In this document: piece after piece, positions 12,701-58,644 of the stretch | Numbering within the stretch: position 1 is the first letter of the stretch | Layout of the letters: each line of letters begins with the position of its first letter | NCBI GenBank assembly: GCA_030390025.1 | Contig: CM059431.1 | Coordinates: 141,920,001 to 141,980,000, forward strand | Length of the DNA stretch: 60,000 nt | From: Squalus acanthias | Lineage: Eukaryota | Direction: 5' to 3' | Notes under the pieces: generated by a model | Databases searched by the model: none | Seen by the model: the letters and a program-made list of their open reading frames with translations, nothing else | What the model was told of the DNA's origin: nothing | Translations under genes and position numbers: made by a program

Positions 12701-13059
12701 TTTTTATGCTCACATTTTTTATGAATTAGTTTGGCCCTTTGTTTTTTGTTCCTCACCCTTTTACCATTTATTTCTGTCTGCCTTTCACTTTCCTCTTTTT
12801 CACTACATAGGTTTCTAGCCCCCTGCCATACTAGTTTAAATGCTCCCGAACTGCTTTATCAAAAATTACCCCGAGAACATCAGTTCCATCTTTGCACAGG
12901 TGTAGACCGTCCCTTTTGTATAGGTCACACCTACCACAAAACTGCTTCCAATGCCTCAAAAATTTAAAACCCTCCCTCTTACACCACTGCTCAAGCCACG
13001 TATTTAGCCTAACTATCCTGTTCTCTGTACTCTTACTAGCACGTGGCACTGGCAGTAAT
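9789..13059 (-). mobile_element. Young CR1 LINE, 5'-truncated inside ORF1, with intact ORF2
   Basis: (ATAGATAC)n octamer tail at 9789-9810; ORF1 C-terminus at 12831-13049 (..DGLHL.. esterase end); CAGTAAT at both junctions. Confidence 0.97.
9889..12756 (-). CDS. CR1 ORF2: apurinic-like endonuclease + reverse transcriptase, 955 aa, uninterrupted
   Basis: YLNARS, ITETW, YRPP, GDFN, SDHN (APE); NYRPVSLTS, QHGF, YLDFQKAFDKV, PQGSVLGP, FADD (RT). Confidence 0.95.
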   Translation of the reverse strand: MRNKKQRAKLIHKKCEHKKSLRILYLNARSIRNKVDELAVEIEVNNYDLIGITETWLQGEQGWELNIQGYSAFRKDRQKRKGGGVALLVKEGINAIERKDINSVNTESIWVELRNSEGRKTLKGVVYRPPNSKIEVGEGITREIREACNKSTAVIIGDFNLHIDWTSLISKNNEEEEFLECLRDGYLDQYVEVTTREQAILDWVLCNEKGLISNLVVRGPLGQSDHNMIDFSLEMESEEIDSETKVLNLNKGNYDAIRRELSRSDWTTFLGGLEVDKQWQAFKDRMTKLQKLFIPIWHKRKSKKVTQPWITGEIRDSIKSKDRAYKITEKSARAEDWEQFKIEQRRTKGLIKRGKIAYESKLAENIKTNSKSFYKYIKRKRLVKTKVGPLQSDTGEYITGNKEMADQLNAYFGSVFTKENTKNLPGISGKIGTLAKEELTQLNISKDMLLRKLKGLKADKSPGPDNMHPRVLKEVALEIADALSMIFQNSLDSGTVPMDWRVANVTPLFKKGGREKAGNYRPVSLTSVVGKMLESIIKDEIAEHLANGDRIGQSQHGFTKGKSCLTNLLEFFEGVTGKIDGGEPVDVVYLDFQKAFDKVPHKRLAWKIEAHGIKGKLLTWIENWLSDRKQRVGINGSFSEWQAVTSAVPQGSVLGPQLFTIYINDLDQGVGCNISKFADDTKLGGGVGSEEETRKLQSDLDRLGDWADKWQMHYNVDKCEVIHLGCRNGRANYYLNGNKLGEGEVQRDLGVLVHQSLKASMQVQQAVKKANSMLAFIAKGLEYRNRDTLLQLYRALVRPHLEYCVQFWSPHLRKDVLAMEGVQRRFTRLIPGMAGLTDEERLCSLGMYTLEFRRLRADLIEVYKILTGLDRLDTEGMFPLAGENRTRGHNLRIRAKPFRTEMRGNFFTQRVVNLWNSLPQRAVYASSLNIFKRELDIFLQAKGVNGYGEKAGTGY

Positions 13060-16000
13060 GTTAGAGTTGGTTCACTGTCAGTAATGTTGGAGTAGGGTCA
13101 CCACCAGTAACGATAGAGTAGAATCACCACCATTTAAGTTATCATAGAGTTACCACTAGTAATGTTCGAGTCGGGTCACCAGCAGTAATGTTGTGGTAGG
13201 TTACTCAACAGTAATGTTAGAGTAGAGTCACCACCAGTATTGTTAGAGCAGGATCATCATTGTAATGTTACGGTACGGTCACCACCAGTAATGTTAGAGT
13301 AGGTTCACCACCAGTAATGTTTGAGTAGAATCAACACCAGTAATGTTAGAGTAGGGTCACCACCAGTAACGTTGGAGTGTGATCACCATCAGTAATGATA
13401 GAGTAGAGACACGACAACATTTATGTTAGGGTATGGTCAATACCAATAATGTTAGAGTGGATTCACCTTCAGCAATGTTAGTATAGGGTCAGCATCAGTA
13501 ATGTGAGTGTAGTTCCACCAACAGCAATGCTACAGTAAGTCACCATCAGTAATGATAGTTTAATTTCCCCAACATTGATTTTAGAGTAGGGTCAAAATCA
13601 GCTATGTTAGAGCAGTGTCACCATCAGTTGTGTTAGTGTAGTTTCACCACCTGTAACGTAAGAGTACTGTTACTACCAGCTATGTTAGAGTACAGTCACC
13701 ACCAATAATGTTCGAATATGGTCAGAACCAATAATGTTAGAGTAAAGTCACCACCAGTAATATAAGAGTTGGTTCACCGCCAGTAATGAAAGAGTAAGGT
13801 CAACACCATTAATGTTGGAGTATGGCCAGCACAATTAATGTTAGAGTAGGATCAATACCAGTCGTGTAAGTGTAGCGTCACCACAATTAATTTTCGAGTA
13901 GGGTCACCATCAATAATAAAAAAGTAGAGACCCCACCAATAATGATAGAGTAGGAAAACCACAAATTTGATGTTAGAGTAAGGTCAACAAACCTAATGTT
14001 AAAGTGATACACCATCAGCAAGGCTACATTAGGGTCTCAACTAGTAATGATAGAGCAGTGTCACTACAGTAATGTTAGAGTGAGGTTTTTACCAGCGTCA
14101 CCACAAATAATGTTAGTGCAGGATTGCCATCATTAATGACAGACTAGAGTTACTACCAGTAATGTTAGAGTGAAAAAGCACATGTAATGTTAGCGCAGGG
14201 ACAACATCATTAAATTTAGAGTAGAATCACCACCATTAATTTCAAGTAGGCACACCTCCAGTAATGTTATTGCAGGGTCACCACCAGTAATGTTAGAGTA
14301 GGGTCACCACCATTAATGTTAGTGTAGGGTCACCACCAGTAATGTTAGAGTAGGGTCACCACCATTAATGTTAGTGTAGGGTCACCAACAGTAATGTTAG
14401 AGTAGGGTCACAAACAGTAATGTTAGAGTTGAGCCACCACCAATAATGTTAGAGCAGGTTCACCACCAGTAATGTTACAGTTGAGACACCACCAGTAATG
14501 TTAGAGTAGTTTCACCATCAGTAATGTTAGAGAAGGGACAAAAGCAGTAATGATAGAGTAAGGAAACCACAAGTAATGTTAGAGTGGGTCACCACCAGTA
14601 ATGATAGAATAGTGTCACCATCTGTAATGTTAGAGTTGAGACACCACCAGTAATGTTAGAGCAGGTTCACCACCAGTAATTTTAAACTAGTGTCACCACC
14701 AGAAATGTTAGAATAGTGTCCCCACCAGTAATGATAGATGAGGGTCACCGCCAGTAATGATAGAGTAGGGTCATCGCCATTAATGTTAGAATAGGTTCTC
14801 CGCCATTAATTTTAGAGAAGGCTCACCAACAGTAATGTTAGAGAAGAGACACTACCAGTAATGTTAGAGTAGGTTCGCCAAAAGTAATGTTAGAGTAGGG
14901 TCACCACCAGTAATGATAGAATAGTGTCACCATCTGTAATGTTAGAGTTCAGACACCACCAGTAATGTTCGAGTTGAGACACCAGCAGGAATGTTAGAGT
15001 AGGGTAGCACCAGTAAGGTTAGAGTAGAGTCACCAGCAGTAATGTTAGAGCAGGTTCACCACGAATAATGTTAGAGCAGGTTCACAGCCAGTAATGTTAG
15101 AATTGAGACACCTCCAGTAATGTTAGAGTGGAGTCACCACCCGTTATGATAGATTAGAGTCACCACCAGTAATGTTACAGCAGGATCACCACTAATAATG
15201 TAGGTGTACGATCACTACCAGCAATAGCAGCCTAGATTCATAACGTGTACTGTGAGTGTAGGCTCAACTTCATTAGTGTTGCACCACAAGTAATGTTAGA
15301 GTTGAGACACCACCAGTAATGTTGGAGTAAGTTCCACCCCAGTAATGCTGGAGTAGGATCACCACCAGTAATGTTACAGTAGGGTCACCAGCATTAATGT
15401 TAGAGTAGGGTCATCACCAGTAATGTTAGAGTAGGGTCACCAGCAATAATGTTAGAGTAGGGTCATCACCAGTAATGTTAGTGTTGAGACACCACCAGTA
15501 ATGATATAGTATGTTCAAAATCAGTACTGTTAGAGTAGGGTCACCACGAGTCATGATTGAGTAGGGTCACCAGCGGTCATGTTAGAGTAGGGTCAACACC
15601 AGTAATGTTAGAGTTGAGAAACCACCAGCAATGTTAGAGTTGGGACACCACCAGTAATGTTAGATTTGTTTCACCACCAGTAATGTTACAGCAGGATCAC
15701 CACTAATAATGTAGGAGTACGATCACTACCAGCAATAGTAGCCTAGATTCATCACATGTACTGTGAGTGTAGGATCAACTTCAGGAGTGTTGTTTAGGGT
15801 CATCACCTGTAATGTTACAGTAGGATGAACACAATTATTGACAGCGTCGTGTTACCAGCAGTAATGTTAGAGTAGGGTGAACAACAGTAATGTTAGAGTA
15901 GGGTCACCAGCATAATGTTAGAATAGAATCACCACCAGTAATGTTAGAATAGTGTCACCAACAGTAATGTTAGAGTAGGGTCACCACCAGTAATATTAGA

Positions 16001-19000
16001 GCAGGGTCATCAACAGTAATGTTAGAGTTGAGACGCAAACCAGTAATGTTAGAGTAGGTTCGCCATCAGTAATGTTAGAGTAGGGTCACCACCAGTAATG
16101 CTAGAGTAGTTTCACCACCAGTAATGATAGATTAGGTCACGACCAGTAATATTAGACTTGAGACACTACCAGCAATGTTAGAGCAGGTTCACCACCAATA
16201 ATGTTAGAGTTGAGACACCACCAGTAATGTTAGAGTTGATACACCACCAGTAATGTTAGAGCTGGTTCAGCATAAGTAATGTTAGCTTTGAGTCACCATC
16301 AGTAATTTTGAGTTGGATCACCAACAGTAATGTTAGAGTTGAGACACCACCAGTAATGTTAGAGCAGGTTCACCACCAGTAATGTTCGAGTAGTGTCACC
16401 TCCAGTAATGTTAGATTAGTTTCAGCACCAGTATAGTTAGAGCAGGTTCACCATAAGTAATGTTAGAGTTGAGACACCACTGTAATGTTAGAGCAGGGTC
16501 ACCGCCAGTAATGATAGAGTAGTATCACCACCAGTAATGATGGAGCAGGGTCACCATCAATAATGTTAGAGTAGGTTCACCATCAGCAATGTTAGAGTAG
16601 GTGCACCAAGGGTAATGATAGAGTACGGTCACCAACAGTAATTTGAGAGTTGATTCACCAGCAGTAATGTTAGAGTTGATACACCAACAGTAATGTTAGT
16701 GTAGGGTCACCACCAGTAATGTTAGAGCAAGTTCATCACCAGTAATATTAGAGTTGAGCCACCACCAGTAATGTTAGAGCAGGTTCGCCACCAGTAATGT
16801 TAGAGCAAGTTCATCACCAGTAATGTTAGAGCAAGTTCACCACCAGTAATGTTAGAGTTGAGACACCACCAATAATGTTAGAGTTGGTTCACCACCAGTA
16901 ATGCTATAGTTGTGACACCACCAGTAATGTTAGAGCAGGTCCACCACCAGTAATGTTAGAGTTGAGACACCACCAGTAATGTTAGAGTTGGTTCACCATC
17001 AGTAATGTTAGAGCAGGTTCACCGCCAGTAATGATAGAGTAGTGTCACCACCAGTAATGATGGAGTAGGGTCACCATCAATAATGATAGAGTAGAGTCAC
17101 CACCAGTAAGGTTAGAGCAGGTTCAGCATCAATACTGTTAGAGTATGTTCACCACCAGTAATGTTAGTGTTGAGACACCACCAGTAATGTTAGAGTAGGC
17201 TCACCAACAGTAATTTGAGAGTAGTTTCACCAGCAGTAATGTTAGAGTTGAGAAACCACCAGTAATATTAGAGTTGATACACCACCAGTAATGTTAGTGT
17301 AGGGTCATCAGCAGTAATGTTAGAGTTGAGAAACCACCAGTAATATTAGAATAGGGTCACCATCAGTAATGTTAGAGTTGAGACAACACCAGTAATGTTA
17401 GAGCAGGTTCGCCACCAGTAATGTTAGAGTTGAGACACCACCTGTAATGTTGGAGTTGGATCAGCAGCAGTACTGTTACAGTTGAGTCACCACCAGTAAT
17501 GTTAGAGCTGGTTCACCGCCAGTAATGTTAGAGTTGTTACATCACCAGTAATGTTATAGTTGAGACACCACCAGTCATGTTAGAGTTGAGACACCACCAG
17601 TAATGTTAGAGCAGGTTCACCATCAGTAATGTTACAGCAGAATCACCACTAATAATGTAGGAGTACGATCACTACCAGAAATAATGGCCTAGATTCATGA
17701 CATGTGCTGTGAGTGTAGGATCAACTTCAGTAGTGTTGCGTAGGGTCATCCCCTGTAATGTTACAGTAGGATCAACACAATTATTGACAGCGTCGTGAGA
17801 CCAGCAGTAATGTTAGAGTAGGGTGACCACCAGAAATGTTAGAATTGAGACACCACCAGTAATGATAGAGTAGAATCACCACCAGTAATGTTAGAGCAAG
17901 TTCACCACCAGTAATGTAAGAGTTGAGACACAACCAGTAATATTAGAGGTTTGCCATCAGTAATGTTAGAGTAGAGTCACCACCACTAATCATAGAGTAG
18001 TGTCATCACCAGTAATTTTTGAGTAGGGTCACCTGCAGTAATTTTAGAGTAGGGTAAACACCAATAATGTGAGAGTTGAGACACCACCAGTAAAGTTAGA
18101 GCTGGTTCACCACCAGTAATGTTACAGCAGGATCACCACTAATAATGTAGGAGTACGATCACTACCAGAAATAATAGCCTAGATTAATGACATGTACTGT
18201 GAGTGTTGGATCAACTTCAGTAGTGTTGCGTAGGGTCATCCTAGTAATGTTACAGTAGGATCAACACAATTATTGGCAGCGTCGTGTCACCAGCAGTAAT
18301 GTTAGAGTAGGGTGACCAACAGTAATGTTAGAGTTGAGACACCACCAGTAATGTTAGAGCAGGTTAACCACCAGTAATTTTAGAGTAGTTTCACCACTAT
18401 TAATGTTAGAGTTGAGACACCACCAGTAATGTTAGTGTAGGGTCACCACCACTAATGATAGAGTCGTGTCACCAGCAGTAATGTTAGAGCAGGGTCACCA
18501 CTAGTAATGTTAGAGTTGAGAAACCACCAGTAATGTTCGAGTAGGGTCACCACCAGTAATGTTAGAGCAGGTTCCCCACCAGTAATGTGAGAGTTGAGAC
18601 ACCACCAGTAATGTTAGATATGGTTCACCACCGGTAATGTTAGAGCAGGATCACCACTAATAATGTAGGAGTACGATCACTACCAGAAATAATAGCCTAG
18701 ATTAATGACATGTACTGTGAGTGTTGGATCAACTTCACTAGTGTTGCGTAGGGTCATCCCCTGTAATGTTACAGTAGGATCAACACAATTATTGGCAGCG
18801 TCGTGTCACCAGCAGTAATGTTAGAGTAGGGTGACCAACAGTAATGTTAGAGTTGAGACACCACGAGTAATGTTAGAGGAGTGTCACCACCATTAATGTT
18901 AGAGCTGAGACACCACCAGTATTGTTAGAGCAGGTTCACCACCAGTAATTTTAGAGTACAATCACCACTATTTATATTAGAGTTGATACACCACCAGTAA

Positions 19001-19160
19001 TGTTAGATATGGTTCACCACCAGTAATGTTAGAGCATGTTCACCATAAGTAATGTTAGAGTTGAGACACCACCAGTAATGCTTGAGTAGTGTCACCAGCA
19101 TTAATGTTAGATTAGGTTATCAACCAGTAATGTAAGATTAAAAGCATCGTCAGTCATGTT
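13053..19160. repeat. 26-bp satellite (segment 3), with variant units and higher-order blocks
   Basis: Same period; GTTGAGACACC and GCAGGTTCACC variants dominate after ~14430. Confidence 0.97.
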
Positions 19161-19658: not shown

Positions 19659-20396
19659 GTAAGTCAATGTATCCTGTTGCCTAATACCTGTTGACAATCT
19701 CAGTGTTAATGCAACATATTCCGAGAATGTCCTCAATGCAGATTCATTCATCCACCGGGATCAGTCGCTGAATATCAGCGGGAATCCTACCAGACCGCGC
19801 GGCCGCTGTTCTGGTGGGCAGATCCTTTGTACCGGGCGCTCAGCCTTCCTCCCTATACTGAGGGAGGGCGAGGCTAATTCCCCGGGCTCTCCAACCGTGC
19901 CTAGATCACTAAAGAACGTGTTGCTCAGTGTCTATAATGTTCACCACATTTGTGCCGTTGTTCTCTGTCGATATTAATTTGATAATTCATCGGACTGCAG
20001 CCACCTCCACCCAACAGGGGACTTTGAAAGATATTTTGAGAAATAATTTGCACTCAAGAAGAAGCTCCATAATTTGGACATAGATTGAACCTATTTGTCT
20101 CAGCTGAATGTTTAATTTGAATTATATCTTTCCATAAATTGCCGTGAAATTATTTTTAATATTTAACAAAGACTGAGTGAAGTATGCTTGAAGGATGATG
20201 GATTTTCAGTCTCTCTATATTGAATGTCCAATGAATAATTTATGTTAAACAACGTACGTTAACCCTCGCCTATGTTCATGATAACAATCCGTCTGCATAA
20301 ACCTAAGTAGGGACACATCTGAACATTTCCCCACATTATGCTGTGAGATTTAACTGAGTGACCCCGTTACTGACCTCTTGTCCCTCTTTCTCACAG

Positions 20397-21295
20397 CGAA
20401 CCTACTGACAATCGTGATTCTCTCCAGAGGAAATTGCGGCCTTTCCAAATGTATCTCTGTCTACATGGTGGCCATGGCAACAGCAGATCTACTGGTCATG
20501 ATCATCAATATATTAGTGAACCGCATTTTACGTTATCACTTTCCACATTCATTCCTGTCGTTAACTGCCGTTTGTAAGATCATTATGTTTGTGCAATGTG
20601 TCACCCTGTATTTGTCGGTGTGGTTTACAGTCTCATTCACATTTGACCGATTTGTAGCTATATGTTGTGAGAAGTTTAAAACCAAGTATTGCACAGTGAG
20701 AACTGCGGCCGCGGTTATAACAACGGTCTCTGTCCTGATCTGTTTACAGAGCCTCCCTTTTTGGTTTGCATATGAACCTGAGCGAATAATTCACAATGTT
20801 CACTGGGGTTGTCGGTCCAGAGCGGAGTTTTTCTCATCGGCTGCAGGTGTTGCGTACTACTGGTTAGAAAGTATTTTCATTGCTTGGCTTGCATTTGCTT
20901 TGATATTAATGTTAAATTGTTTGACAGTCAGACGTATTTTAGTGGCCAGTAGAGCCCGCAAGGGACTCCGGGGTCACAGCAGTGAGAATCAGATCGATCC
21001 AGAGATGGAGAACCGAAGGAAATCCATCATTTTACTTTTCAGTGTATCGGGCAGTTTTATACTGTTGTGGCTGACATCTGTTGTTAGTTATTTAACTACC
21101 AGACTGACAAGCACCGCGTTTTACCGAGGCGATAATGCAGCTCCCGCATACATCGCCACAGTAACCGGGTATATGCTCATGTATTTGAGTTCCTGTTCAA
21201 ACACGTGTATTTATGCAGCTACTCAAAGTAAATTCAGGGCAGAGCTGAAGAAGCTGATTAAATCTCCATGGAAGTTTATTGTTCTTCGAAAATGA
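20397..21295 (+). CDS. GPR139-like rhodopsin-class GPCR, coding exon 2 (spliced protein 322 aa)
   Basis: Branch-like TACTGAC, pyrimidine tract and CACAG acceptor at 20396; hydrophobic TM segments, MATADL (TM2), FDRFVAIC (TM3), ECL2 Cys, RRKSIILL (TM6 start), NTCIY (TM7); no internal stops. Confidence 0.93.
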
Positions 21296-23944: not shown

Positions 23945-24865
23945 TTCCCCGTCCCCTGTTTCTATTTAAAATGTTTTGGTATTCCCTTTGAGTTTCTCTA
24001 TTTCTAATTAAGCAGTTATTGTGTTTCCTTAACATTGCTTGCCCTCTATTTGTTATTAAACATGATGCGGAGATGCCGGTGTTGGACTGGGGTGGACAAA
24101 AATGAGAAGTCGCACAACACCAGGTTATAGTCCAACAGTTTTATTTGAAATCACAAGCTTTCGGAGCTGCTGCTCCTTCGTCGGGTGAAGTAAAGAAATA
24201 CTTTCTTTACTTCACCCGACGAAGGAGCAGCAGCTCCGAAAGCTTGTGATTTCAAATAAAACTGTTGGACTATAACCTGCTGTTGTGCGACTTCTCATTT
24301 TTGTTATTAAACAGTAACTGTGTTCCCCTGTCAAGTAATTCTATATACATGGATACTATGTTCTTGCGCCCAAATTTCTAATTAAACAGTTACTGTGTTT
24401 CCCTGACATTCCCGTCTCCTCTATTTCTAAATAAAGAGTTACTGTCTCCCCAGTCCCCTATTTCTAAATAAACAGTTACTGTGTTTCCCCATGTCTCATT
24501 TAATTCTATTTCTTATTAGATAGTTTTCTTGATTCCCCTGAATGTCCTTGTCCTCTATTTCTAATTGAACCGTTGCTGTCTTCCCCTGTCCCCTACTTCT
24601 AAATGAAGTGTTATTGTGTTCCGCTGGTCGCTATTTCTAATATCAGTTGCCATATTCCACTGTCCTCTATTTCTAATTAAACCATCACTGTGTTCGTCTA
24701 TATTCCCTTTAGACTATTTCAAATTAACAGTTAATTTATTGCACTTCATTTTCCTGTTCTCCATTTCTAATTAAACATTTACAGTGTTCCCCTGAATACT
24801 CCTTTATTCTAATTCTACTTTTGCTGCCCGTGTTCCCCTGAACTCCCCTGTTCTCTAGATTTAAT
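23945..24865. repeat. Degenerate ~35-45-bp minisatellite (TATTTCTAATTAAACAGTTACTGTGTTCCCCTGTCCC)
   Basis: Recurring TATTTCTAATTAAACAG core. Confidence 0.85.
24063..24299. mobile_element. Palindromic mini Penelope-type insertion with hammerhead motifs on both strands
   Basis: 103-bp arms 24096-24198 and 24202-24304, 3-nt loop, one mismatch; 14-bp TSD TTTGTTATTAAACA at 24049-24062 and 24300-24313. Confidence 0.9.
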
Positions 24866-28640: not shown

Positions 28641-29829
28641 TGTTGACTTGATCAGTGTGCACAGGACCCTTACTTAGAAAAATGATCGATAACTTTCAAT
28701 GACGTTGGAGTATTTTTGTTGTCCTATTCTGCAAATTCTGTCATCAATCTACCCGCTGAAAGGGTCTGGTAGCACAGGTGTTGGACAAACTCCATGTGTC
28801 ATTATACAAGTCAGTTGCTTTACACGTGGTGCGTTGTGCTCTCATCTTGAAATGCGAGTCTCTTCAACATCCAATACAAACTGAATTGCAAACTTGAAGG
28901 ACAAGCATAGGAATACAAGTCACTAGTGAACACAAACCACATGCTGCTCATTTTCAAAGTCATGGCAGTCAGCTTTTACATAAAGTGAAATAAATGTGCA
29001 TTGATAAGATTTGGAAATAGATGTTACTTGTATTTGTGTGTTTTGTTGTTCTATTTATTAAACTTTCTGGCGTCTGACTCCCGTTGAGTCTCTTCTTCCT
29101 CTATTGAATTTGAAAGGAGGAGTTTGACGTTGGCCAGACCCGCACTGCGCCTGATATTTGTGAGCTCATCTTATATTTAGTGTTTTATGCCCCTTTGATC
29201 GGCGTCAGCTTTAGCTCATTATATTATACAAATATGGAACTGTTAAGATGGTTGACCCAAACTGCTCAAAGCCTTCGGTTTTAAGGAGGGTCTAAAAGGA
29301 GGTGAGGGAGGGGTAAAGATGGAGGGGTTTAGGCAGGGAGTTCCAGAGCATGACGCCTACACAAATATTGCATCATGTTCGCATGTGCCTGCTGTCAGAC
29401 CGCAGTGTTTTACAACGTTTTGCATTGAAAAAATACAGTTAGTAGCTGCAGCTAAATTATCACTAAAATGGCCCAGCGTGTTTTAAATTGTTTTCCCTAA
29501 TACCAGCTGTAGAATAGCCACACATTCAATGTAGCCTCACACGGTGCGATGGCGTGTTCCAGTTCTATATATGGAGATACAGAATCAATTTCCATCAGTT
29601 TATTTGAACCCAATAACTTAATATATTTCGAACGGGTTGGATGGAGGAACATGATCCATCGGCATGTTTTTATCATTAGATTTGAAATGAGTACTCATAA
29701 AATTATTTGGTTGGAAATTTACCAGATAACAGCACAGCTGGCAATGTGTGCGGAATATTTTCTTGCAGCCAAAGCACACATTGACAATCTGGCAATGAAT
29801 CACAAAGGGAAAAAAACCGTTAAAATCTT

Positions 29830-29843
29830 CGTCCCTGGGTGGA

Positions 29844-29874
<31 letters not shown>

Positions 29875-29904
29875 AAACGCGCTAACCGATTGCGCCACAG
29901 AGAC
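29830..29904 (-). tRNA. tRNA-Asn (GTT), variant or young pseudogene
   Basis: GTCTCTGTGGCGCAATCGGTTAGCGCGTTTGGCTGTTAACCGAAAGGTTGGTGGTTCAAGCTCCACCCAGGGACG, nearly the vertebrate Asn-GTT sequence; 8-nt T-loop; T4 and T7 terminator runs downstream. Confidence 0.92.
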
Positions 29905-30304
29905 GTCCGGGTGCTGGCGTCTAAAATTCCCTAAACCAGGCTGTCAGTTTGTTACAGTTTTAGATTGCTGCGACCGGAATAGCAATTGTCCACTCTCAGT
30001 TTTATATTTCCAAATTAAAGAATGGGAATTCATTGTGAACACACAGAGACTATCTGGTCCGCATACTGCAGACACACCCATGTCACCGTGAACCAGCTCT
30101 CCTGCTAACGGTGCGGTCTCCCTTCCAGCCTTTTGGTGCCTTGTTTGTTCCGAATTACTCTGATTGTACCGAAACCAACGTTGCGTTTGATTTCCTGATC
30201 TGCAGTAACGAGAATCCTTTAAATGTCTCAGTGCAGTTAATGTCACCGATATCATCAGAGAAGATGTTCCAGCGTCTGAAACCAGGTAACGGTGCCTTAA
30301 CCGC

Positions 30305-31844
30305 CTGTGTGAGGCAAGGGAGGAGATTGCAGGGGCTCTGACACAAATTTTCAGAAACTCTCTGACCACAGGGGAGGTGCCAGAGGACTGGAGGACAGCT
30401 AACGTATTACCATTAGTCAAGAAGGGTAGTAGGGATAAACCAGGAAATTACAGGCCAGTGAGCCTAACATCAGTGGTAGGGAAATTATTGGAAAAAATTC
30501 TGAGGGGCAGAATTAGTCTCCACTTGGAGAGGCAAGGATTAATCAAGGATAGTCAGCATAGCTTTGTCAGGGTGGAGGTCATGTCTAACCAATTTGATTG
30601 AATTTTTCGAGGGGGTGACTAAGTGTGTGGATGTGGGTAGTGCAGTTGATGTAGTCTACATGGACTTCAGTAAGGCTTTTTGACAAAGTCCCGCATGGGA
30701 GACTGGTCAAGAAGGTAAGAGCCCATGGGATCCAGGGCAATTTGGCACATTGGATCCAAAATTGGCTTAGTGGCAGGAAGCAGAGGGTGATTTGTGAAGG
30801 TTGTTTTTGTGACTGGAAGCCTGTGTCCAGTGGTGTACCGCAGGGATCGGTGCTGTGTCCCTGGCTGTTTGTAGTGTGCATTAATGATTTAGATATGAAT
30901 GTAGGCGATATGATCAGTAAGTTCGCAGATGACACGAAAATTGTTGAAGTGGTAAATAGCGAGGAAGCAGGCCTCAGGCTAGAGGACGATATAGACGGGT
31001 TGGTCAGATGGGCAGAACAGTGGCAAATGGAATTTAACCCTGAAAAGTGTGAGGTGATGCATTTTGGGAGGACTAACAAGGCAAGGAATACACAATGAAC
31101 GTTAGGACCCTCGGAGGGACAGAGGATCAGAGGGACCTTGGTGTGCATGTACATATATCCCTGAAGGCAGCAGGACAGGTAGATAAGGTGGTTAAGAAGG
31201 CATTTGGGATACTTGCCTTCATTAGCCGAGGCATAGAATATAAGAGCAGGGAGCTTATGATGGAGCTGTACAAAATGCTAGTAAGACCACAGCTGGAATA
31301 CTGTGTGCAATTCTGGTCGCCACACTCTAGGAATGATGTGATTGCATTGGAGAGGGTGTAGAGGAGATTCACCAGGATGTTACCTGGGCTGGAGCGTTTC
31401 AGCTATGAAGAGAGACTGGTCAGGCTGGGGTTGTTTTCCATAAAGCAGAGAAGGCTGAGGGGGACCTGATTGAGGTGTACAAAATAATGAGGGGCATAGA
31501 TAGGGTAGATAGAAAGGAACTTTTCCTCTTAGTAGCGGGGTCAATAACCAGGGGACATAGTTTCAAGGTAAGGGGCAGGAGGTTTAGAGGGGATTTGAGG
31601 AAAAACTTTTCACCCAGAGGGTGGTTGGAATCTGGAACTCACTGCCTGAAAGGATGGTAGAGGCAGGAACCCTCACAACATTCAAGAAGCATTTAGATGA
31701 GCACTTGAAACGCCATAGCATACAAGGCTACGGACCAATTGCTGGAAAATGGGATTAGAATAGATGGGGTTTGATGGCCGGCTCAGAAACGATGGGCCGA
31801 AGGGCCTCTTTCTGTGCTGCATAACTCTTTGACTCTATGACTCT
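30305..31844 (+). mobile_element. CR1 RT/3' part (inner nested element, copy A)
   Basis: WRTANV, NYRPVSLTS, KFADDTK, VRPQLEYC; CTATGA tail. Confidence 0.93.
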
Positions 31845-33058
31845 AAAATTCATAGATTCTGGAACGGTTCCCGTGGATTTGAATGTAGCAAATGTAAACC
31901 CACTATTGAAGAAAGGAGGGAGAGAGAAAACGGGGAACTACAGACCAGTTAGCTGACATCAGTAGCAGGGAAAATGCAAGAATCTATTATTAAGGAAGTG
32001 GTAACAGGGCTCTTAGAAAATAATAATAGGATTGGGCAGAGTCAACCCGGATTTATGAAAGGGAAATCGTGTTTGACAAATCAGTTAGAAATTTCTCATT
32101 TTGTAACTAGCAGAATACATAAGGGGGAACCAGGGAATGTGGTGTATTTGGATCTTCAGAAGGAATTCGATAAGGTGCTACACAATGGGTTATTAAACAA
32201 AATTAGTGCTCATGGGATTTGGGGTAATGTACAAGTATGAATTAAGGATTGGTTAACGGACAGAAAACAGAGAGTAGGAATAACCGGTTCTTTTTCGGTT
32301 TGGCAGGCTGTATCTAGTGGGGTACCGCAAGGATCAGTGCTTGGGCCTCAGCTATTCAGAAACTACATCAATGATTTGGATGAGTGGACCAAAAGTAATA
32401 TATCCAAGTTTGCTGATGATGCAAAGTTGGGTGGGAATGCAAGTTGTGAGGAGTATACAAGGAGGCTTCAAGGGGATATAGACAGGGTGAGTGGGCAAGA
32501 ACTTGGCAAATGTCATAAAATGTGGAGAAATGTGAAGTTATCCACTTTGGTAGGAAATCTAGAAAAATAGATTATTTTTAAATGGTGAGAGATTGGGAAA
32601 TGTTGTTGTTCAGAGAGAGCTGGGTCTCCTTGTACACGAATCACTGAAAGTTAGCATGCAGGTGCAGCAAGCAATTAGGAAAGCAAATGGCATGTTGGAC
32701 TTTAATACAAGAGGATTTGAGTTTAAGATGAAAGACATCTTACTGCAATTATATAGGGCCCTGGTGAGACCACACCTGAAGTATTGTGTACAGTTTTGGT
32801 CTCATTACCTAAGGAGGGATATACTTGCTATCGAGGGAGTGCAACGAAGATTCAGCAGACTGGTTCCTGGTATTGGAGATTGTCCTATGGAGAGAGATTA
32901 AATAGACGAGGCCTATAAGCTCTAGTAATGAGAAGAATGAGAGGTGATCTCATTGAAACATACAACGTTCGTACTTGGCTTGACAGGGTAGATGCGGGAA
33001 GGATGTTTGCCCTTATTGGGGAGTCCAGAATCAGACATCACAGTCTCAGAATAAGGGG

Positions 33059-33271
33059 AAGTCGCAAAACACCAGGTTATAGTCCAACAGATTTATTTAA
33101 TTTTACAAGCTTTCGGAACAGTTCGCTCCTTCGTCAGGTCTGCTAACTTACCTGACGAAGGAGCGAACTGTTCCGAAAGCTTGTAAAATTAAATACATCT
33201 GTTGGACTGTAACCTGGTGTTGTGCGACTTCTCATTTTTGTCCACCCCAGTCCAACGCCGGCATCTCCACA
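33059..33271. mobile_element. Palindromic mini Penelope-type insertion with hammerhead motifs
   Basis: 82-bp arms 33058-33139 and 33150-33231; 13-bp TSD TCAGAATAAGGGG at 33046-33058 and 33272-33284; empty site in the paralog at 55162-55174. Confidence 0.92.
33148..33186 (+). ncRNA. Minimal type I hammerhead ribozyme motif, intact core
   Basis: TTAC-CTGACGA-A-GGAGC-GAACT-GTTCC-GAAA-GC-TT-GTAA. Confidence 0.8.
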
Positions 33272-33924
33272 TCAGAATAAGGGGTCAGCAATTTAGGACT
33301 GAGATGAGGAGACATTTTTCACTCAGTGGCCGCTGAATCTTTGGAATTCTGTAACACAGAGAGGGCTATGGACTCTGAATCGTTGAGTATATTCAAAACA
33401 GAGATTGATTGAATTTTGAATATGAATGGAATTAATGGATATGGGAATATTGCAGGAAGGTGGAGATGACGTAGAAGATCAGACATGATCTTATTGAATG
33501 GCGGAGTAGGCTCGAAGGGCCGAGTAGCTTTCTTTTACTCCTATTTCTTATATTGTTATGTTCTTAAGATCGGGGTGAAATCATAGAATGATACAGCACA
33601 GAAGGAGAGGATTCGGCCCATTGTGTCCGTGTCGGCTCTTTGAAAGAACAAACCCATCAGTCTCACTCACTGCTCTTTTCGCTAGCCCAACATTACTTTA
33701 TCCTTTTAAAGTATTTATCCAAATTCCTTTTGAAAGTTCCCATTGAATCTGCTTCTACGGCCCTTTCAGGCAGTGCATTTCAGCACATAAGAACTCATTG
33801 TGTAAAAATTCAGTCTCCTGATCACCCCCTCTGTTTGTTTTAACAATTGCCTTAAATCTGTGCCTTTGGTTTCTCGACGCACCTGCCAATAGAAACGCTT
33901 TCTCCTTCTTTATTCTAGGGATCA

Positions 33925-34328
33925 GCCAGAGCTCAGTGTATTGCCCTCACGAGTCAGTAGCTCGTGGGTTCAGATCCCACTCCAGAAACTTGAAGCACTG
34001 CACCAGCAGAGGTGCCGTACTTCAGATGAGATGTTAAAACGAGGTCACATCTGCCCTCTCGGAGGGATGTAAAATATCCCATGGTTATTTCGAAGTAGAG
34101 CAGGGGAATTCTCCCATGTTCCCTGGGCCATTATTTATCCAGCAACCAACATCACTGAACACAGATTATCTGGTCAATATCCCATTGCTGTTTGTGGGAG
34201 CTTGCTGTGCAAATTGCCTGTCACGTTCCGTGTCACATTATAACAGTCACTACATTTCATAAAGTATTTCATTGTCTGTAAAGCACTTTGGTCTGCCACG
34301 AGGTTGTGACAGGTGCTATATAAATGCT
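33925..34328 (+). mobile_element. tRNA-headed Deu-domain SINE (DeuSINE/SacSINE1-like), copy A
   Basis: GGTTCAGATCCC B-box-like head; GAGGTGCCGT..GATGAGATGTTAAA..CAGATTATCTGGTCA..GCTGTTTGTGGGAGCTTGCTGTG Deu core; GCTATATAAATGC tail (recognised from memory). Confidence 0.75.
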
Positions 34329-34639
34329 TTATCAGAACCCATCGTATTTTTGAACACGTCTATTAAATGTTCACGTAACCTTCTCTGCTCTAAATAATTC
34401 CTCTGGGATTCTACCTGTAGGGCCTCTGTAATTTTGGCAGGAATTCCGTTGTGTCCGCACAGGCCATTCTTGGGAACCATCCGGATTTCAAGGCTGTATG
34501 TGTTAGCCAAGAATGCCTGACGGCTAATCATGGTCCTTGCTTTTGATTTGCTCCTGTAGCGTGGCGACACTGGAAGGGCAGCATATGTTATTCATACCTA
34601 GTTGCCCTGAGGGCTTTAAGTGTATAATACTGGCCTTGC

Positions 34640-35420
34640 CGGCATCGATCCATCCCAAGAATGATTCGGTGGCACCGCACACGTGCCGGGCAATGAACAT
34701 CTCCAAAAATAGTGAGCCTAACAATCTCCCCTTGACATTCAATGACATTACCATCGCCCAATTGGCCCATCATCAATAGCGTATGGAGCAACTTTGGCCA
34801 GAATCTCAACCGCACCAGCCACATAAATGCAATGGTACTGGAGCAGGTGAGAGGCGTGTTATTCTGTGGTGAGTTTCTCACCTCCTGATTCCACAGTGAC
34901 TTTTCACCACCTACAAGTCACAAGTCAGGAGTGTGCTGGAATACTCTCGAATTGTCTGTATGAGATGCAGCTCCAACAACACTGAAGAATCTCGACATCA
35001 TCGAGAATACAGTCCGCTTGATGAGCACTCCATCCACCATATTGAACATTCACTCCCTCCACCACAGTCGCAACGCGGCTGCTGTGAGTAGCAGCTACAA
35101 AATGGACTGCAGAAACTCGCCAAGGATTTTTCGACAGAAGCTTTCAATCCACGAACTCTATCACCGAGAAGGACAAGGACAGCAGACGTATGTGAACACC
35201 ATCAACTCCAATTCCTCTCCAAGTTACACACCATCCTGACTTGAAAATATATCACCGTTGCTTCATCGTCGCTTTGTCAAAATCCTGGAACTCCCTCCCG
35301 AACAGCACTGTGGGATTGTCTCACTATATGGACTGCAGCGGTTCAAGAAGGTGGCTCACCACGACCTTCTCAAGGGCAATTAGGGATGGTCAACAAATGG
35401 TGTCTCTGCCAGCGAGGCTG
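34640..35420 (+). mobile_element. Decayed non-LTR retrotransposon 3' fragment (family not assigned)
   Basis: YKSQVRSVLEYS-like RT C-terminal motif and KSWNSLP motif; duplicated at ~59360-60000. Confidence 0.7.
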
Positions 35421-38529: not shown

Positions 38530-39275
38530 TGTGTGTGTGTGAGTGTGTGAGTGAGTGAGTGAGTGAGAGACAGAGAGACAGCGAAAGAGAATGCGTATGT
38601 ATCAGTGAGTGACTCTGTGTATGTGTGTGTGCTTGTGTGTGTGAGAGAGAGAGAGATAACGCGTGTGTATTTGTGAGTTACTCTGAGTGTGTGTGAGAGA
38701 GAGAGAGAGATAACGCGTGTGTATTTGTGAGTTACTCTGAGTGTGTGTGAGAGTTAGGCACACACACACACAGACAGAGACAAAGGATGCATATGTACCT
38801 CACTGAGTAACTTGAGTGAGTGTGTGTGTGTAAGAGAGAGAGAAAATTACACAAAGAGACAGAATGCGTGTATATATCAGTAAGTGAATGATTGTATGTG
38901 TGAGAGACAGAGATATTGGAAGCGAGTGACTGTCAGTCATTGTGTCTGTGCGAGAGACGTAGAGAAAGTCAATGGGACAAAAATTCATCCCGCTGCGCGA
39001 GAGTACGCACTGCCTTACCCCCGCGGGAACAGATCGAGATCAATTTCTGGGCCAATGTGTGTGTATATCAGAGTGACTGTTATGTATATCTGTGTATGTG
39101 ATGCGGAGATGCCGGCGTTGGACTGGGGTGGACAAAAATGAGAAGTCGCACTACACTATAACCTGGTGTTGTGCGACTTCTTATATCTGTGCAAGTAAGA
39201 GAGACAGAGAGACTGACAGAGAGAGAAAGAGAAAGGAAGCTTCTGTATATCAGTGAGTGATTCTGAGTGAGCATG
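38530..39275. repeat. Compound (GT)n/(GA)n low-complexity tract
   Basis: Dinucleotide runs with a ~55-bp internal duplication. Confidence 0.85.
39100..39181. mobile_element. Internally deleted copy of the palindromic mini element
   Basis: Same GATGCGGAGATGCCGGCGTTGGACTGGGGTGGAC tail and inverted GAAGTCGCAC/GTGCGACTTC ends; imperfect 15-bp TSD at 39085-39099 and 39182-39196. Confidence 0.85.
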
Positions 39276-43044: not shown

Positions 43045-46000
43045 AGATTGTCACATGATATCACACTCCAGCTCTAACACTCCAGCTGCCATATTCTGGA
43101 TGTCACAATCCAGATTTCACATTCCTTAGGGCACGCTGCAGCTGTCACAACCCAGTTGTTATACTCCAGATGTCACATGCGTGATTTTAATCTCCAGATG
43201 TCATTCGCAACATGTCACGTTCCAGAAGATACATACCTGGTGTCACACTCCAGATGTCACACTCCATCTGTCAGAGCCCTGATGTCATATTCCAGATGTG
43301 GGAATACTGATGCCACGTTCCAGCCGGTACACTCAAGATGTCACATTATAGATCTCACAATGCTGATGTCATAATGCTGATGTCACACAGCAGATCTCAC
43401 ACTCCAGCTCTCACACACCAGATGCGACACGCCTGATGTCATACCTCAGATCTCACACACCAGATGCCACACTCAAGATGTCACAATCCAGATGTCACAC
43501 TCCTTATGGTACACTGCAGTTGTCACTCCCCAGATGTCACTCCAGATGGAACACTACTGATGTCAAAGCACTGATGTAGCCCTCTAGATATCAAACTCCA
43601 GATTTCACCATCATGATGTCACAATGCAGATGTCACACTCCTTATGGTACACTGCAGTTGTCACACTCCAGATGTCACACTCCAGATGGAAAACTGCTGA
43701 TGTCACAGCACTGATGTAGCCCTCTACATATCAAACTCAAGGTTTCACTCTCATCTCGCACTGCAGATGTCATATGCCAGATGTGATTCTGCAGATGTCA
43801 CACTCCAGATGTCACACTGCTGATATCACACGACTGATGTCACTCTCCAGATGTAGCACTCATAAGGTCATACTGCTTATCTCGCAATCCAAATGTCACA
43901 TTCCAGATAGCAAACTCCTGATGTCACACTCCTGATGTCACACTCCTGAGGTCGTACTCCTGATGTCGTACTCCTGATGTCAGACACAACAGGTCACATT
44001 CCAGAAGGTACATACCTGCTGTCACACTACAGTCAGACTCCAGATGTGACAATACAGATGTCACGTTCCAGGTGGTGCACACAAGATGTCACATTCCAGA
44101 TCTCACACTGCTGATGTCACACAGTAGATCTCACACTCCAGCTCTCACACTCCTGATGACACACTTCAGATGTCACACAGCTGAAGTTACATTCCAGATA
44201 TGAGACTGGAGCTGTCAGATCCCCGATGTCACACCCCAGATAAAGAATACAGATGTCACCTTCCAGCCGGTACACTCAAGGTATCACATTGCAGGTCTCA
44301 CACGACTGATGTCACACAGCAGATTTCACAATCTAGCTCTCACACTCCTGATGACAAGCTCCAGATTTCACACTGCTGAAGCCACACTCCATTTCTCTAA
44401 CACCAGATACCACGCTCTAGATGTCAACCTCCAGATGTCACACAACTGATGTCACACTCCAGATGTCACACTTCTTATCTCACACTCCAGCTCTCACACA
44501 GCTGATGACACACTCCAGATGTCACACACCAGATGCCAAACTCTAGATGTCACTATACAGTTGTCAAACACCTTATGGCACATTGCAGATGTCACACTGC
44601 TGATGTCACACTGCTGATGTCACACTCATAATGTCACACTCATTAATGTCACACTCAATGTCACATTCATAATGTCACACTCATAATGTCACACTCATGA
44701 TGTAGCCCTATAGATGTCACACTCCAGGTATCAAACTCAAGATTTCACACTCATGTCACACTGCAGATGTCACACGCCAGATGTTATACTCCAGATGCCA
44801 CACTCCACATGTCACACTGCTGATATCACAAGACTAATGTTACTCTCCAGATGTCGCACTCATAAGGTCATGCTTCTTATCTCGCAATCCAAATGTCACA
44901 CTCCTGATGTCAGACGCAACATGTCACGTTCCAGAAGTTACATATCAGATGTCACACTACAGATGTCACACTGCTGATGTCATACTACTGATGTCACTCT
45001 CCAGATGTCACACTCATAATGTCATACTTCGTATCTTGCAATCCAGATGTCACACTCCAGATATTAAACTTCAACTTTCACACTCATGATGTCAAACTCC
45101 TGATGTCACACTCCTGATGTCGTACTCCTGATATTACACGCCAGATGTCATACGCAACATGTCACCTTCGAGAAAGTACATGCCTGCTGTCACACTACAG
45201 ATGTCACACTCCAGATGTGAAAATACAGATGTCACGTTCCAGATGGTACACACAAGATGTCACATTCCAGATCTCACACTGCTGATGTCACACATTAGAT
45301 CGCACACTCCAGCTCTCACACTCCTGATGACACGCTCCAGATGTCACACAGCTTAGTTGCACTCCAGATTTCAAACTTCAGCTGTCACATCCCAGATGTC
45401 ACACTCCAGATGTGAGAAGACAGATGTCACGTTCCAGCCAGTACACACAAGATGTCTCTTTCCAGGTTTCACACTGCAGATGCCACACAGCAGATGTCAC
45501 ACTCCAGCTCTCACACTCTAGCTCACACACTCCTGTTGACTAACTCCAGATGTCACACTGCTGAAGTCAAAATCCAGATTTCACACTTCAGTTGTCAGAC
45601 CCCTGATGTCACACTCCAGATGTCACAATGCTGATGTCACACTCCAGATCTCTCACACCATTTGCCAAACTCTGGATTTCACAATACAGTTGTCACACAA
45701 CAGAGGTCAGACTCCAGATTTCATACTCCAGCTGTCACACTGCTGATGTCACACTACTGATGTCACACTGCTGATGTCACACTACTGATGTCATACTACT
45801 GATGTCACACTTCTTATCTCGCAATCGAGATGTCACACTCTAGATGTCACACTCATAATGACACACTTCTTATCACAAACTCCAGGTCTCACACTCCTGA
45901 TGACACACTCCAGATGTCACAATGCTGAAGTCACACGCCAGATTTTACACTCCAGCTGTCAGACCACTGATGACATACTCCAGATGTGAGAATACAAATG

Positions 46001-46470
46001 TCAATTTCCTGATGGTACACTCAGGATGTCACATTCCAGATCTCACACTATTGATACCACACAGCAGAGCTCACACTCCAGGTCTCACATCCTGATGAAA
46101 CATTTCGCAATTATGAAGGCACACTCCAGATCTTAAACTACAACTGTCAGACCCCTGGTGGCACGCTCCAGATGTCACACTCCTGATAATACTCTCCAGA
46201 TGTCATACTCAAAATTTCAGGTTCAAGAACGTACATACCTGGTATCACACTACATTTGTCACACTCCAGATGTTACAACACAGATGTCACATACCAGATC
46301 CCATACTGCTGATGTCACACAGCAGATATCACACTCCAGCTCTCAACCTCCTGGTGACATACTTCAATTGTCATTCAGCTGACGTCACACTCCAGATAGA
46401 ACAATCCTGTTATCAGACACTTGATTTCGCATTATAGGTGCCTCACTGCTGATGTCACACTCCAGATACC
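43045..46470. repeat. 14-bp minisatellite, consensus CAGATGTCACACTC, ~3.4 kb
   Basis: Directly visible; frame-cycling ORFs (MSHSRCHTPDVTLQ) fit a 14-nt period. Confidence 0.97.
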
Positions 46471-47570: not shown

Positions 47571-47721
47571 GGAACCCCCAGATGTTGACGAGGAGGCCTT
47601 TGGAGCTTCAGCACGACTGAGATTGTCGGACACTCAGTCCTGAAGAGGTGCCTGGGTCTTTGGCGATGGGCCCGTCCATTTTGACATTTCTTATTGAATT
47701 CAATATGACAACTAGTCATAA

Positions 47722-47860
47722 TACAAAAGCAAAATACTACGGATGCTGGAAATCTGAAATAAAAACAGAAAATGCTGGAAATACTCAGCAGGCCAGGCAG
47801 CACATGTGGAGAGAGAAACAGAGTTAATGGTTCAGATCGATGACTTTCCGTCAGAACTGG
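47722..47860 (-). mobile_element. Short Penelope pLTR end
   Basis: Matches 2093-2231; hammerhead motif degraded. Confidence 0.88.
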
Positions 47861-51800: not shown

Positions 51801-54800
51801 AGAAACTGAAACAAATTAGTTTGAGCAAAAAAAAAATACTCGAGAAATTTATGGGTCTGAAAGCCCTGGACCTGATAGCCTACATGCTAAGGTTTCGACA
51901 GAGGTGGCTATACAGATAGTGGATGCATTGGTTGTTCTTTTCCAAAATGGATGTCAAGGGATATACAAGAATGGATTAGGAAAAAAAGGGAGACTTTTGG
52001 CAGATACAAAGGACTAATAACATTGGAAGCCCTAGAGGAGTATAGAAAGTGCAGCGGGGTACTTAAAAAAGAAATTAGGAGAGCAAAGAGGGGGCATGAA
52101 AAAACACTGGCAGGCAAAATAAAGGAAAATCCCAAGATGTTTTATAAGTATATTAAGGGCAAGAGGATAACCAATGAAAGAGTAGTGCCCATTAGGGACC
52201 AGACTGGCAATCTCTGTGCAGAGCCAAAAGATATAGGTGAGGTTTTAAATGAACATTTTGCATCTGTGTTCACTCTGGAAAAGGACATTGTAGGCATAGA
52301 AATCAGGCAGGCGGATTGTGATATACTGAAACAAATTAGTATTGAGAGGGAGGCGGTACTAGCGGTTTTATCGGGCTCAAAAGTGGATAAATCCCCAGGC
52401 CCAGACATGTATCCCAGGATGCTGTGTGAGGCAAGGGAGGAGCTTGCAGGGACTCTGACACAAATTTTCAGAACCTTTCTGGCCACAGGGGAGGTGCCTG
52501 AGGACTGGAGAACAGCTAACGTTTTACCATTATTCAAGAAGGGTAGTAGGGATAAACCAGTGAATTACAGGCCAGTGAGCCTAACATCAGTGCTAGGGAA
52601 ATCATTGGAAAAATTCTGAGGGGTAGAAATAGTCTCCACTTGGAGAGGCAAGGCTTAATCAAGGATTGTCAGCATGGCTTTGTCAGGGTGGAGGTCATGT
52701 CTAACCAATTTGATTGAATTTTTCGAGGGGGTGACTTAGTGTGTGGATGAGGATAGTGCAGTTGATGTAGTCTACATGGACATCAGTAAGGCTTTCGCAA
52801 AGTCCCGCATGGGAGACTGATCAAGAAGGTAAGAGCCTATGGGATCCAGGGCAATTTGGCACATTGGATCCATAATTGGCTTAGCGGCAGGAGGCAGAGG
52901 GTGATGGTAGAAGGCTGTTTTTGTGACTGGATGATTGGTGTCCCGTGGTGTACTGCAGGGATCGATGCTGGGTCCCTTGCTGTTTGTAGTGTACATTAAT
53001 GATTTAGATATGAATGTAGGAGATATGATCAGTAAATTCGCAGATGACACGAAAATTGGTGGAGTGGTAAATAGCGAGGAAGGAAGCCTTAGGCTGGAGG
53101 ACGATATAGACCGGATGGTCAGATGGGCAGAACAGTGGCAAATGGAATTTAACCCTGACAAGTGTGAGGTGATGCATTTTGGGAGGACTAACAAGGCAAG
53201 AAAATGCACAATGAACGGTAGGACCCTCGGATGGACAGAGGATCAGAGGGACCTTGGTATGCATGTACATAGATCCCTGAAGGCAGCAGGACAGGTAGAT
53301 CAGGTGGTTAAGAAGGCATATGGGATACTTACCTTCATTAGCCGAGGCATAGAATATAAGAGCAGGGAGCTTATGATGGAGCTGTACAAAATGATAGTTA
53401 GGCCACAGCTGGAATATTGTGTGCAGTTCTGGTTGCCACCCTATGGGAAGGATGTGATTGCATTGGAGAGGGTGCAGAGGAGATTAACCTGGATGTTACC
53501 TGGGCTGGAGCTTTTCAGCTATGAAGAGAGACTGGACAGGCTGGGGTGTTTTCCTTAGAGCAGAGAAGGCTGAGGGGGACCTGATTGAGTTGTACAAAAT
53601 TATGAGGGGCATAGATATAGTAGATAGAAAGGAACTTTTCCTCTTAATAGAGGGGTCAATAACCAGGGGGCATAGTGTCAAGGTAAGGGGCAGGAGGTTT
53701 AGAGGGGATTTGAGGAAAATCGTTTTCACCCAGAGGGTGGTTGGAATCTGGAACTCACTGTCTGAAGGGATGGTATAGGCACGATCCCTCACAACATTCG
53801 AGAAGCATTTAGATGAACACGTGAAACGCCATAGCATACAAGGCTACGGAACAATTGCTGGAAAATGTGATCAGAATAGATCGGATTTAATGACCGGCGC
53901 AGAAACGATGGGCCGAAGGGCCTCTTTCTGTGCTGTATAACTCTATGATTCTGTGACTCTAAAATTCATAGATTCTGGAACGGTTCCCGTGTATTTGAAG
54001 GTAGCAAATGTAACCCCACTATTGAAGAAAGGAGGGAGAGAGAAAACGGGGTACTACAGACCAGTTACCTGACATCAGTAGCAGGGAAAATGCTAGAATC
54101 TATTATTAAGGACGTGGTAACAGGGCTCTTAGAAAATAATAACAGGATTGGGCAGAGTCATCCCGGATTTATGAAAGGGAAATCGTGTTTGACAAAACAG
54201 TTGAAAATTTTTCATGTTGTAACTAGCATAATACATAAAGGGGAACCAGGAAATATGGTGTATTTGGATTTTCTGAGGCATTCGATAAGGTGTTACACAA
54301 GAGGTTATTACTCAAAATTAGGGCTCATGGGATTGGGGGTAATGTATTAGCATGAATTAAGGATTGGTTAACGGACAGAAAACAGTGAGTAAGAATAACC
54401 GGGTATATTTTCGGGTTGGCAGGCTGTATCTAGTGGGGTACCGCAAGGATCAGTGCTTGGTCCTCAGCTATTCAGAAACTACATCAATGATTTGAATGAG
54501 GGGACCAAATGTAATATATCCAAGTTTGCTGATGATACAAAGTTGGGTGGGAATGTAAGTTGTGAGGAGTATACAAGGAGGATTCAATGGGATATAAACA
54601 GGGTGAGTGGGCGAGAACATGGCAAATGTGATAAAATGTGGAGAAATGTGAAGTTATTCACTTTGGTAGGAAATCAAGAAAAAGAGATTATTTTAAAATG
54701 GTGAGAGATTGGGAAAAGTTGGTGTTCAGAGGGACTTGGGTGTCCTTGTACACGAATCACTGAAAGTTAACATGCAGGTGCAGCAAGCAATTAGGAAAGC

Positions 54801-58180: not shown

Positions 58181-58644
58181 GATGACGTAGAAGATCAGAC
58201 ATGATCTTATTGAATGGCGGAGTAGGCTCGAAGAGCCGAGTGGCTTTCTTTTACACCTATTTCTTATATTGTTATGTTGTTAAGATCGGGGTGAAATCAT
58301 AGAATGATACAGCACAGAAGGAGACGATTCGGCCCATCGTGTCCGTGTCGGCTCTTTGAAAGAGCTAACCCATCAGTCTCACTCACTGCTCTTTTCCGCT
58401 AGCCGAACATTACTTTATCCTTTTAAAGTATTTATCCAAATTCCTTTTGAAAGTTACCAATGAATCTGCTTCTACGGTTCTTTCAGGCAGTGCATTTCAG
58501 ACCATAAGAACTCATTGTGTTAAAATTAGGTCTGCTCATCAACCCTTCTGTTTGTTTTACCAATTGCCTTAAATCTGTGCCTTTAATTTCTCGACGCACC
58601 TGCCAATATAAACCCTTTCTCCTTCTTTATTCTAGGGATCATTC

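Follow-up and report, generated by a model that had tools for sequence, protein, structure and literature searches.

A dead, 5'-truncated insertion of probable Penelope-like origin with head-to-head ends and a hammerhead motif in Squalus acanthias

A 213-bp insert near 33 kb of the window (the whole stretch of 60,000 nucleotides of Squalus acanthias DNA that was analysed) is very probably a dead, 5'-truncated EN+ Penelope-like element (PLE) insertion, formed by two head-to-head pLTR ends, one of them tailed, in a CR1 remnant. Both the layout and the ribozyme motif of this 33 kb insert are already published for PLEs, and the locus alone matters little, as one among thousands of PLE stumps. Where such stumps abound in a genome, however, the positions and polarities of their centres can separate the joining of two cDNAs from self-priming, and can also test limits on cDNA length near the hammerhead.

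Results

Structure and class of the insertion

The insert (33059–33271) is bounded by exact 13-bp direct repeats at 33046–33058 and 33272–33284, in agreement with the target-site duplication (TSD) described in an earlier, sequence-only reading of this DNA. Its left arm (33059–33139, – strand) is an inverted, tail-less copy of the pLTR end, with a hammerhead core at 33137–33111. A 10-nt centre (33140–33149, + strand) of sense family sequence, including the TT of stem I, runs into the right arm (33150–33230, + strand), a sense copy of the pLTR end whose limits come from the comparison of the arms. The arms had been given as 82 bp; they are indeed inverted, with three mismatches, and measure 81 bp, the longer figure being reached only if one TSD base is included. 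At two sites the mismatch is private to the right arm, the alternative letter making up 99% (33196) and 98.5% (33209) of the depth in X1, one of the public data runs described below. Contigs of runs X5 and X8 align across 33141–33203, that is, through the centre, which is thus family sequence.

The right arm alone continues into a 41-nt tail (33231–33271, + strand), a feature absent from the earlier description, with loose ends of the family near 33234 and 33268. The first three bases of the TSD (TCA) are also the tail end of the family (CATCA), so the TSD proper may measure 10 bp, the other 3 bp being microhomology.

The 33 kb insert holds no ORF and so no RT gene within it, and no RT or GIY-YIG frame linked to its family was found in the window; class membership therefore rests on layout and motif. 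Four features of the EN+ PLE layout are present: an inverted 5'-truncated copy, a one-sided tail, a short TSD with an empty site, and a minimal hammerhead. PLE inserts with an inverted 5'-truncated copy and a one-sided tail of 30–40 bp are described by Craig et al. 2021 (PMC8557442), TSDs of 8–10 bp and palindromes at the inverted junction by Arkhipova et al. 2013 (PMC3846280), and the same canonical insertion layout in PMC8969392. The 33 kb insert shares with these canonical EN+ PLEs (PMC3846280, PMC8557442) the head-to-head pLTR, one-sided tail, short TSD, junction palindrome and non-LTR host element. It differs in that both its copies are stumps of about 80–130 bp without an ORF, and in a TSD of 13 bp as against 8–10 bp in rotifers.

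The duplicated segment lacks the insert

The flanks without the insert align to 55062–55274, gapless at the insertion site, and the 13-mer occurs there as a single, insert-free copy (55162–55174) inside a CR1-type LINE remnant. The alignment belongs to a segmental duplication of 30305–35286 versus 52422–60000 at 92–95% identity, which reaches the window end; the duplicate at 52422–60000 carries its own later CR1 LINE insert of 2.8 kb (55356–58176). We rejected the idea that the paralog merely reflects two unrelated LINE copies, since the duplicate covers several LINEs and 1.8 kb at 95% beyond them. Further, distant CR1 copies without the insert lie at 10074–10083 and 55643–55653. The claim of a real insertion after the duplication is borne out by a gapless empty site in a true segmental duplicate, and this empty paralogous site fixes the order of events at the locus. 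Arm divergence (3/81; 3.7%, interval 0.8–10.4%) does not differ significantly from that of the flanks (86/1823), and the duplication gives 4.7% and 7.8%. The divergence of the arms thus fits, without proving, an insertion later than the duplication.

A hammerhead motif predicted to be inert in place

The right arm holds a minimal type I hammerhead motif at 33148–33186 (+ strand). It is built from stem I (TTAC/GTAA, 33148–33151/33183–33186), the core CTGACGA (33152–33158), an unpaired A (33159), stem II (GGAGC/GTTCC, 33160–33164/33170–33174), GAAA (33175–33178), GC and TT. The boxes CUGANGA and GAAA, the NUH triplet, the G10.1–C11.1 pair and the unpaired base before helix II are all present. 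A descriptor search recovered the intact core that had been proposed (CTGACGA...GAAA-GC-TT, with predicted cleavage after 33182). Based on a strict minimal-hammerhead descriptor, there are four matches in the window and none in 500 dinucleotide shuffles (60 kb, both strands). No Rfam hammerhead model matched the insert, whether at gathering score or with E allowed up to 10, and none matched the sense motif alone.

When the motif is folded alone its stems pair, with predicted probabilities of 0.77–1.0. The whole insert is predicted to fold as a hairpin of –139.5 kcal/mol, in which the hammerhead stem probability is 0; the same value is predicted for a transcript ending at 33190. Because a read-through RNA of the insert would form the 81-bp hairpin, the hammerhead is predicted to be unable to fold in place. 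In these models it is inert where it lies, and we reject in-place ribozyme activity. Models of miRNA precursors applied to 33100–33190 returned shape-only matches to the long hairpin, all under gathering scores.

Helix III of the motif is AGCU, a palindrome that permits dimers. Two motif copies co-folded are predicted to pair through their AAGCUU stretches (–18.5 kcal/mol), with helix I not formed. The copy in the left arm keeps its boxes; the junction leaves its stem I with 2 bp, and it consequently fails the descriptor. The proposal that the palindrome folds back at stem I is therefore half right: of the two arms only the left one stops within stem I, with its end 2 nt upstream of C3, and that of the right arm lies 12 nt upstream.

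The splice-donor consensus is CAG|GTAAGT, and the antisense strand across the border of stem I and core (33145–33153) matches it perfectly, possibly by chance; the match is not conserved in the copy at 24 kb.

Other copies of the family

The window contains two further copies. The first (24063–24304, – strand, tail on the left) has 103-bp arms with one mismatch, a 3-nt centre (24199–24201) and a TSD of about 14 bp that overlaps an arm end. The 33 kb insert is of the same family and reversed relative to this copy, as had been noted. The core reads CCGACGA in both arms at 24 kb (24216 and 24184), not CTGACGA, so that either the template already had the mutated core or later homogenisation made the arms alike. 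The second (39099–39181, – strand, tail on the left) has arms of 16 nt and 25 nt, no hammerhead and a 10-bp TSD. Centres and arm lengths differ in all three copies.

The family is abundant in public data (contig or read counts for four of the 22 runs listed). Contigs matching the 132-bp sense arm number 7330 in X1, 5780 in X5 and 1092 in X8, and X21 contributes 8 reads. Loose ends with heterogeneous flanks of low agreement lie behind 33234 in at least 40 (X1), 29 (X5) and 5 (X8) contigs and behind 33268 in at least 41, 28 and 11, and lesser clusters lie at 33244 and 33248. These counts show that the family is present in many copies and has two favoured 3' ends, about 35–40 nt apart, which bound the tail. 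Patterns of the family had no matches in viral, prokaryote-genome and metagenome collections, and hence gave no longer copy. In three runs the consensus past the tail end, taken from the loose ends at 33268–33272, starts CATCATG, with low agreement beyond (0.49–0.57); the start codon of the source element may thus come directly after the tail.

A second family and conservation of the fold

A second PLE family is recognised by a different hammerhead, also of minimal type (2225, – strand), and by a weak GIY-YIG match in a decayed frame, the only one in the window (E 0.009, below the Pfam cut-off). It forms a head-to-head pair at 2094–about 3213 and 7971–8434, within a 26-bp satellite. The pair is flanked by a 12-bp direct repeat, a 12-mer occurring only at 2082 and 8435; only its left arm bears a tail, of 36 nt, and its 4.7-kb centre contains satellite and LINE pieces. 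A stump of the same family (47719–47860) has its 5' end 6 nt upstream of C3 and a decayed core, and a search for its TSD found none.

To compare the stems we took the pair counts from the descriptor output, because a sequence alignment of the five copies is out of structural register for the second family. Among three variants with an intact stem I (TTAC/GTAA, TCAC/GTGA and AGTT/AACT), all 12 cells are Watson–Crick, and stem III is AGCU or ACGU across motif variants, each self-complementary. The compensatory change proposed for stem I, TTAC/GTAA versus TCAC/GTGA at 24212, is confirmed as a single event between two subfamilies; by position alone, two changes among eight stem positions would be partners with a chance of 1 in 7. 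In other contigs the loose-end consensus has TTCAC ahead of the core and GTGATTTC behind it, the halves not being linked on any one listed record. The stem I type at 24 kb is on this ground a subfamily and not a private change.

For stem II, both arms do carry the G-U pair at 33171 that the earlier reading had pointed out; it is a minority allele, with C at 93% (X1), 97% (X5) and 99% (X8) of the depth, and is weak evidence for conservation of the fold. A further G-C to G-U change, at 33173, accounts for 49% of the X1 depth, 31% of that in X8 and 0.2% of that in X5, frequencies that may be driven by a few deep contigs. The suggestion that the RNA fold is selected in the source elements is upheld mainly through the comparison with the second family (the 12 stem I cells and stem III). 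Judged from these patterns, the source elements have probably kept the fold, and PLE hammerhead families are described as 'full of covariations' by Cervera and De la Pena (PMC4209133).

Discussion

Two cDNAs or one strand folded back

In the mechanism that we propose, the PLE RT-endonuclease would nick both target strands about 10–13 bp apart. Each 3' end would then prime cDNA on uncleaved pLTR RNA, at the tail end for one and at the tail-less start site for the other; both cDNAs would cross the hammerhead, halt slightly upstream and be joined head to head. The hammerhead would be a passenger of the source element, where its fold appears conserved and where it probably acts in dimeric form or assisted by a protein.

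A tail is found on one arm only in all four TSD-flanked head-to-head inserts of the window, which come from two families. Poseidon of Anolis carolinensis (PAc; Frangieh et al. 2024, PMC11167929) has two RT start sites bounding the tail, cuts and extends both target strands in vitro, and uses uncleaved RNA as its dominant template. PAc and the 33 kb insert are thus alike in two 3' ends that bound a tail, a hammerhead upstream and an uncleaved RNA template. They are unlike in that PAc is a complete element whose RT and EN have been tested, whereas the 33 kb insert is known from sequence and has no ORF, and the work on PAc leaves the inverted copy unexplained. The origin of tandem and inverted PLE structures is called unresolved in PMC8557442.

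The mirror half could instead come from self-priming of one strand (snap-back), for which the template may have been antisense; the tail would then be what remains when the outer ends are resolved unevenly. Only in the joining step does this reading depart from ours, and we regard it as a possible but not a probable route. Self-priming was proposed for rotifer PLEs (PMC3846280), the tail was attributed to endonuclease resolution (PMC8557442), and a centre contiguous with the tailed arm, as at 33 kb, is what simple snap-back predicts. Against it, the RT start sites of PAc coincide with the tail ends (PMC11167929), and the 39 kb copy (39085–39191) has the other polarity: the 9 nt of its centre are in sense orientation and connect to the tail-less arm through a 2-nt overlap. 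Snap-back of a tailed cDNA gives the reverse polarity, and snap-back of a tail-less cDNA gives no tail, so that this copy better fits two separately primed cDNAs. A hairpin intermediate unevenly trimmed at its outer ends would also explain the 39 kb junction. The two-cDNA step draws on this one informative junction, the 33 kb centre being compatible with either route.

Inner ends upstream of the core

Relative to C3, the inner ends lie at –2 and –12 in the 33 kb insert, at –14 to –17 at the centre of the 24 kb copy and at –6 in the second-family stump (47860). In total, three of six inner-end clusters in the window are 2–17 nt upstream of C3 when the arms of the 2–8 kb pair are counted separately. 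Under a post hoc geometric truncation model the clustering has P = 0.0004–0.009, values that are inflated because the copies were found partly through holding the motif. We therefore describe a weak clustering of inner ends 2–17 nt upstream of the core.

Given a real pile-up, the 5' end of the RNA or a splice junction is a simpler cause than the ribozyme. RT would then start in the 5'-most pLTR of the transcript and run off the end, an account that we consider rather unlikely but worth setting out. In the D. virilis Penelope, 46 bp separate the start site from the beginning of the intron (PMC2377424), whose 3' end falls in the 5' strand of helix I (PMC4209133). A pyrimidine run followed by CAG, acceptor-like and perhaps there by chance, overlaps the 5' strand of stem I in the second family, and in PAc reverse transcription begins within the 5' portion of the RNA (PMC11167929). 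Set against these points, the sequence upstream of the core varies among copies, and there are three cases.

That the ribozyme region itself decides the point at which cDNA synthesis ends or turns back, be it by cleavage, by pairing of stem I or as a protein-bound fold, appears improbable to us, the inner-end positions above being the evidence in its favour. As an effect of cleavage or of priming from stem I, the earlier claim that the ribozyme sets the cDNA turn is unsupported, since both arms hold the whole core; the template was thus uncut there and stem I was not a snap-back primer. A cleaved template would halt cDNA at 33183, but the arms go 33 and 43 nt past the predicted cut (33182/33183). 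We therefore rejected a cleavage-defined centre, the cDNA having run through the cut site, and a stem-I-primed snap-back, which would be expected to leave one core in the loop and not two. An RT travelling 3' to 5' would also reach the 3' strands of the stems first. Among the four TSD-flanked head-to-head inserts of the window, the centre is near stem I in two and far from it in two: in the 39 kb copy the arms turn 54 and 65 nt downstream of C3, and in the 2–8 kb pair about 370 and 990 nt upstream. The X1 depth across stem I climbs evenly (188k, 357k, 503k, 726k, 936k), a weak test as contigs lie near the edge of a short reference, and the features listed include no strand-change joints at all and no end pile-ups at stem I. 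In vitro, hammerhead mutants leave the insertion product unchanged (PMC11167929).

Our preferred mechanism can be widened into a general proposal, offered tentatively and with the odds against it. PLE head-to-head inserts would consist of two cDNAs, one per nicked strand, started from the sites that bound the tail in a manner like twin priming, and their inner ends would cluster in the roughly 20 nt upstream of the core through a local feature (RNA 5' end, splice junction or protein-bound ribozyme). In a search outside which most subscription journals fell, we found no published statement of two-cDNA joining with an inner-end pile-up for PLEs. If the proposal is true, stumps like the 33 kb insert record an unexplained step of PLE integration, through centre polarity and position across thousands of copies.

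Comparison with hammerheads and retrozymes

The motif closely resembles the minimal hammerhead of PMC4209133, whose accessible text describes an unpaired base before stem II, a palindromic stem III and opposite-strand pairs 100–700 bp apart. Both are of type I, with a 4-bp helix I, an unpaired base between A9 and G10.1, the pair G10.1–C11.1, a palindromic helix III, opposite-strand pairs from truncated PLEs, and apparent covariation among families. In contrast, helix II here has 5 bp (6 with a further G-U) as against 7–8 bp in Schistosoma, and sharks are not among the taxa named in that text. For dimer cleavage of PLE hammerheads, PMC6765202 cites PMC5785218; as the copies are head to head, the 33 kb insert would give no dimer in cis.

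Non-LTR retrozymes (Li et al. 2026, bioRxiv 10.64898/2026.07.22.740005) are likewise PLE-derived and non-coding, have a type I hammerhead and occur in the one chondrichthyan sampled. Their units, however, are head-to-tail, each with the motif, whereas the 33 kb insert is head-to-head. With head-to-head copies and no tandem array found at the locus, we rejected its assignment to this class. A stand-alone palindromic mini-element, MITE-like or retrozyme, acting as a fixed mobile unit or as a functional hairpin or ribozyme RNA in place, is highly improbable: the near-perfect arms, the TSD, the miRNA-precursor-like hairpin shape and the presence of the family in X8 (RNA by guess, with no listed X8 piece tied to the 33 kb locus) speak for it, and against it stand three centres and three arm lengths in three copies, by which a fixed MITE-like unit is rejected, motifs on opposite strands and not in tandem as in retrozymes (bioRxiv 10.64898/2026.07.22.740005), stems predicted unable to form in the insert, and arms with private mutations.

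Sequence context

The window is vertebrate DNA with many CR1-type LINEs, satellites, one GPCR gene and one tRNA gene. Its LINE sequence is presumably shark-type, and one CR1-type LINE keeps an open 988-aa frame with endonuclease and RT domains (9889–12855, – strand). The 26-bp satellite forms three blocks (104–2087, 8449–9788 and 13053–19137), and a 14-bp satellite occupies 43057–46339. The tRNA-Asn(GTT) gene (29829–29905) accounts for the only Rfam matches at gathering score in the window, and a single-exon frame of 313 aa (20354–21295, + strand) belongs to the rhodopsin family of GPCRs (7tm_1, E 7e-22).
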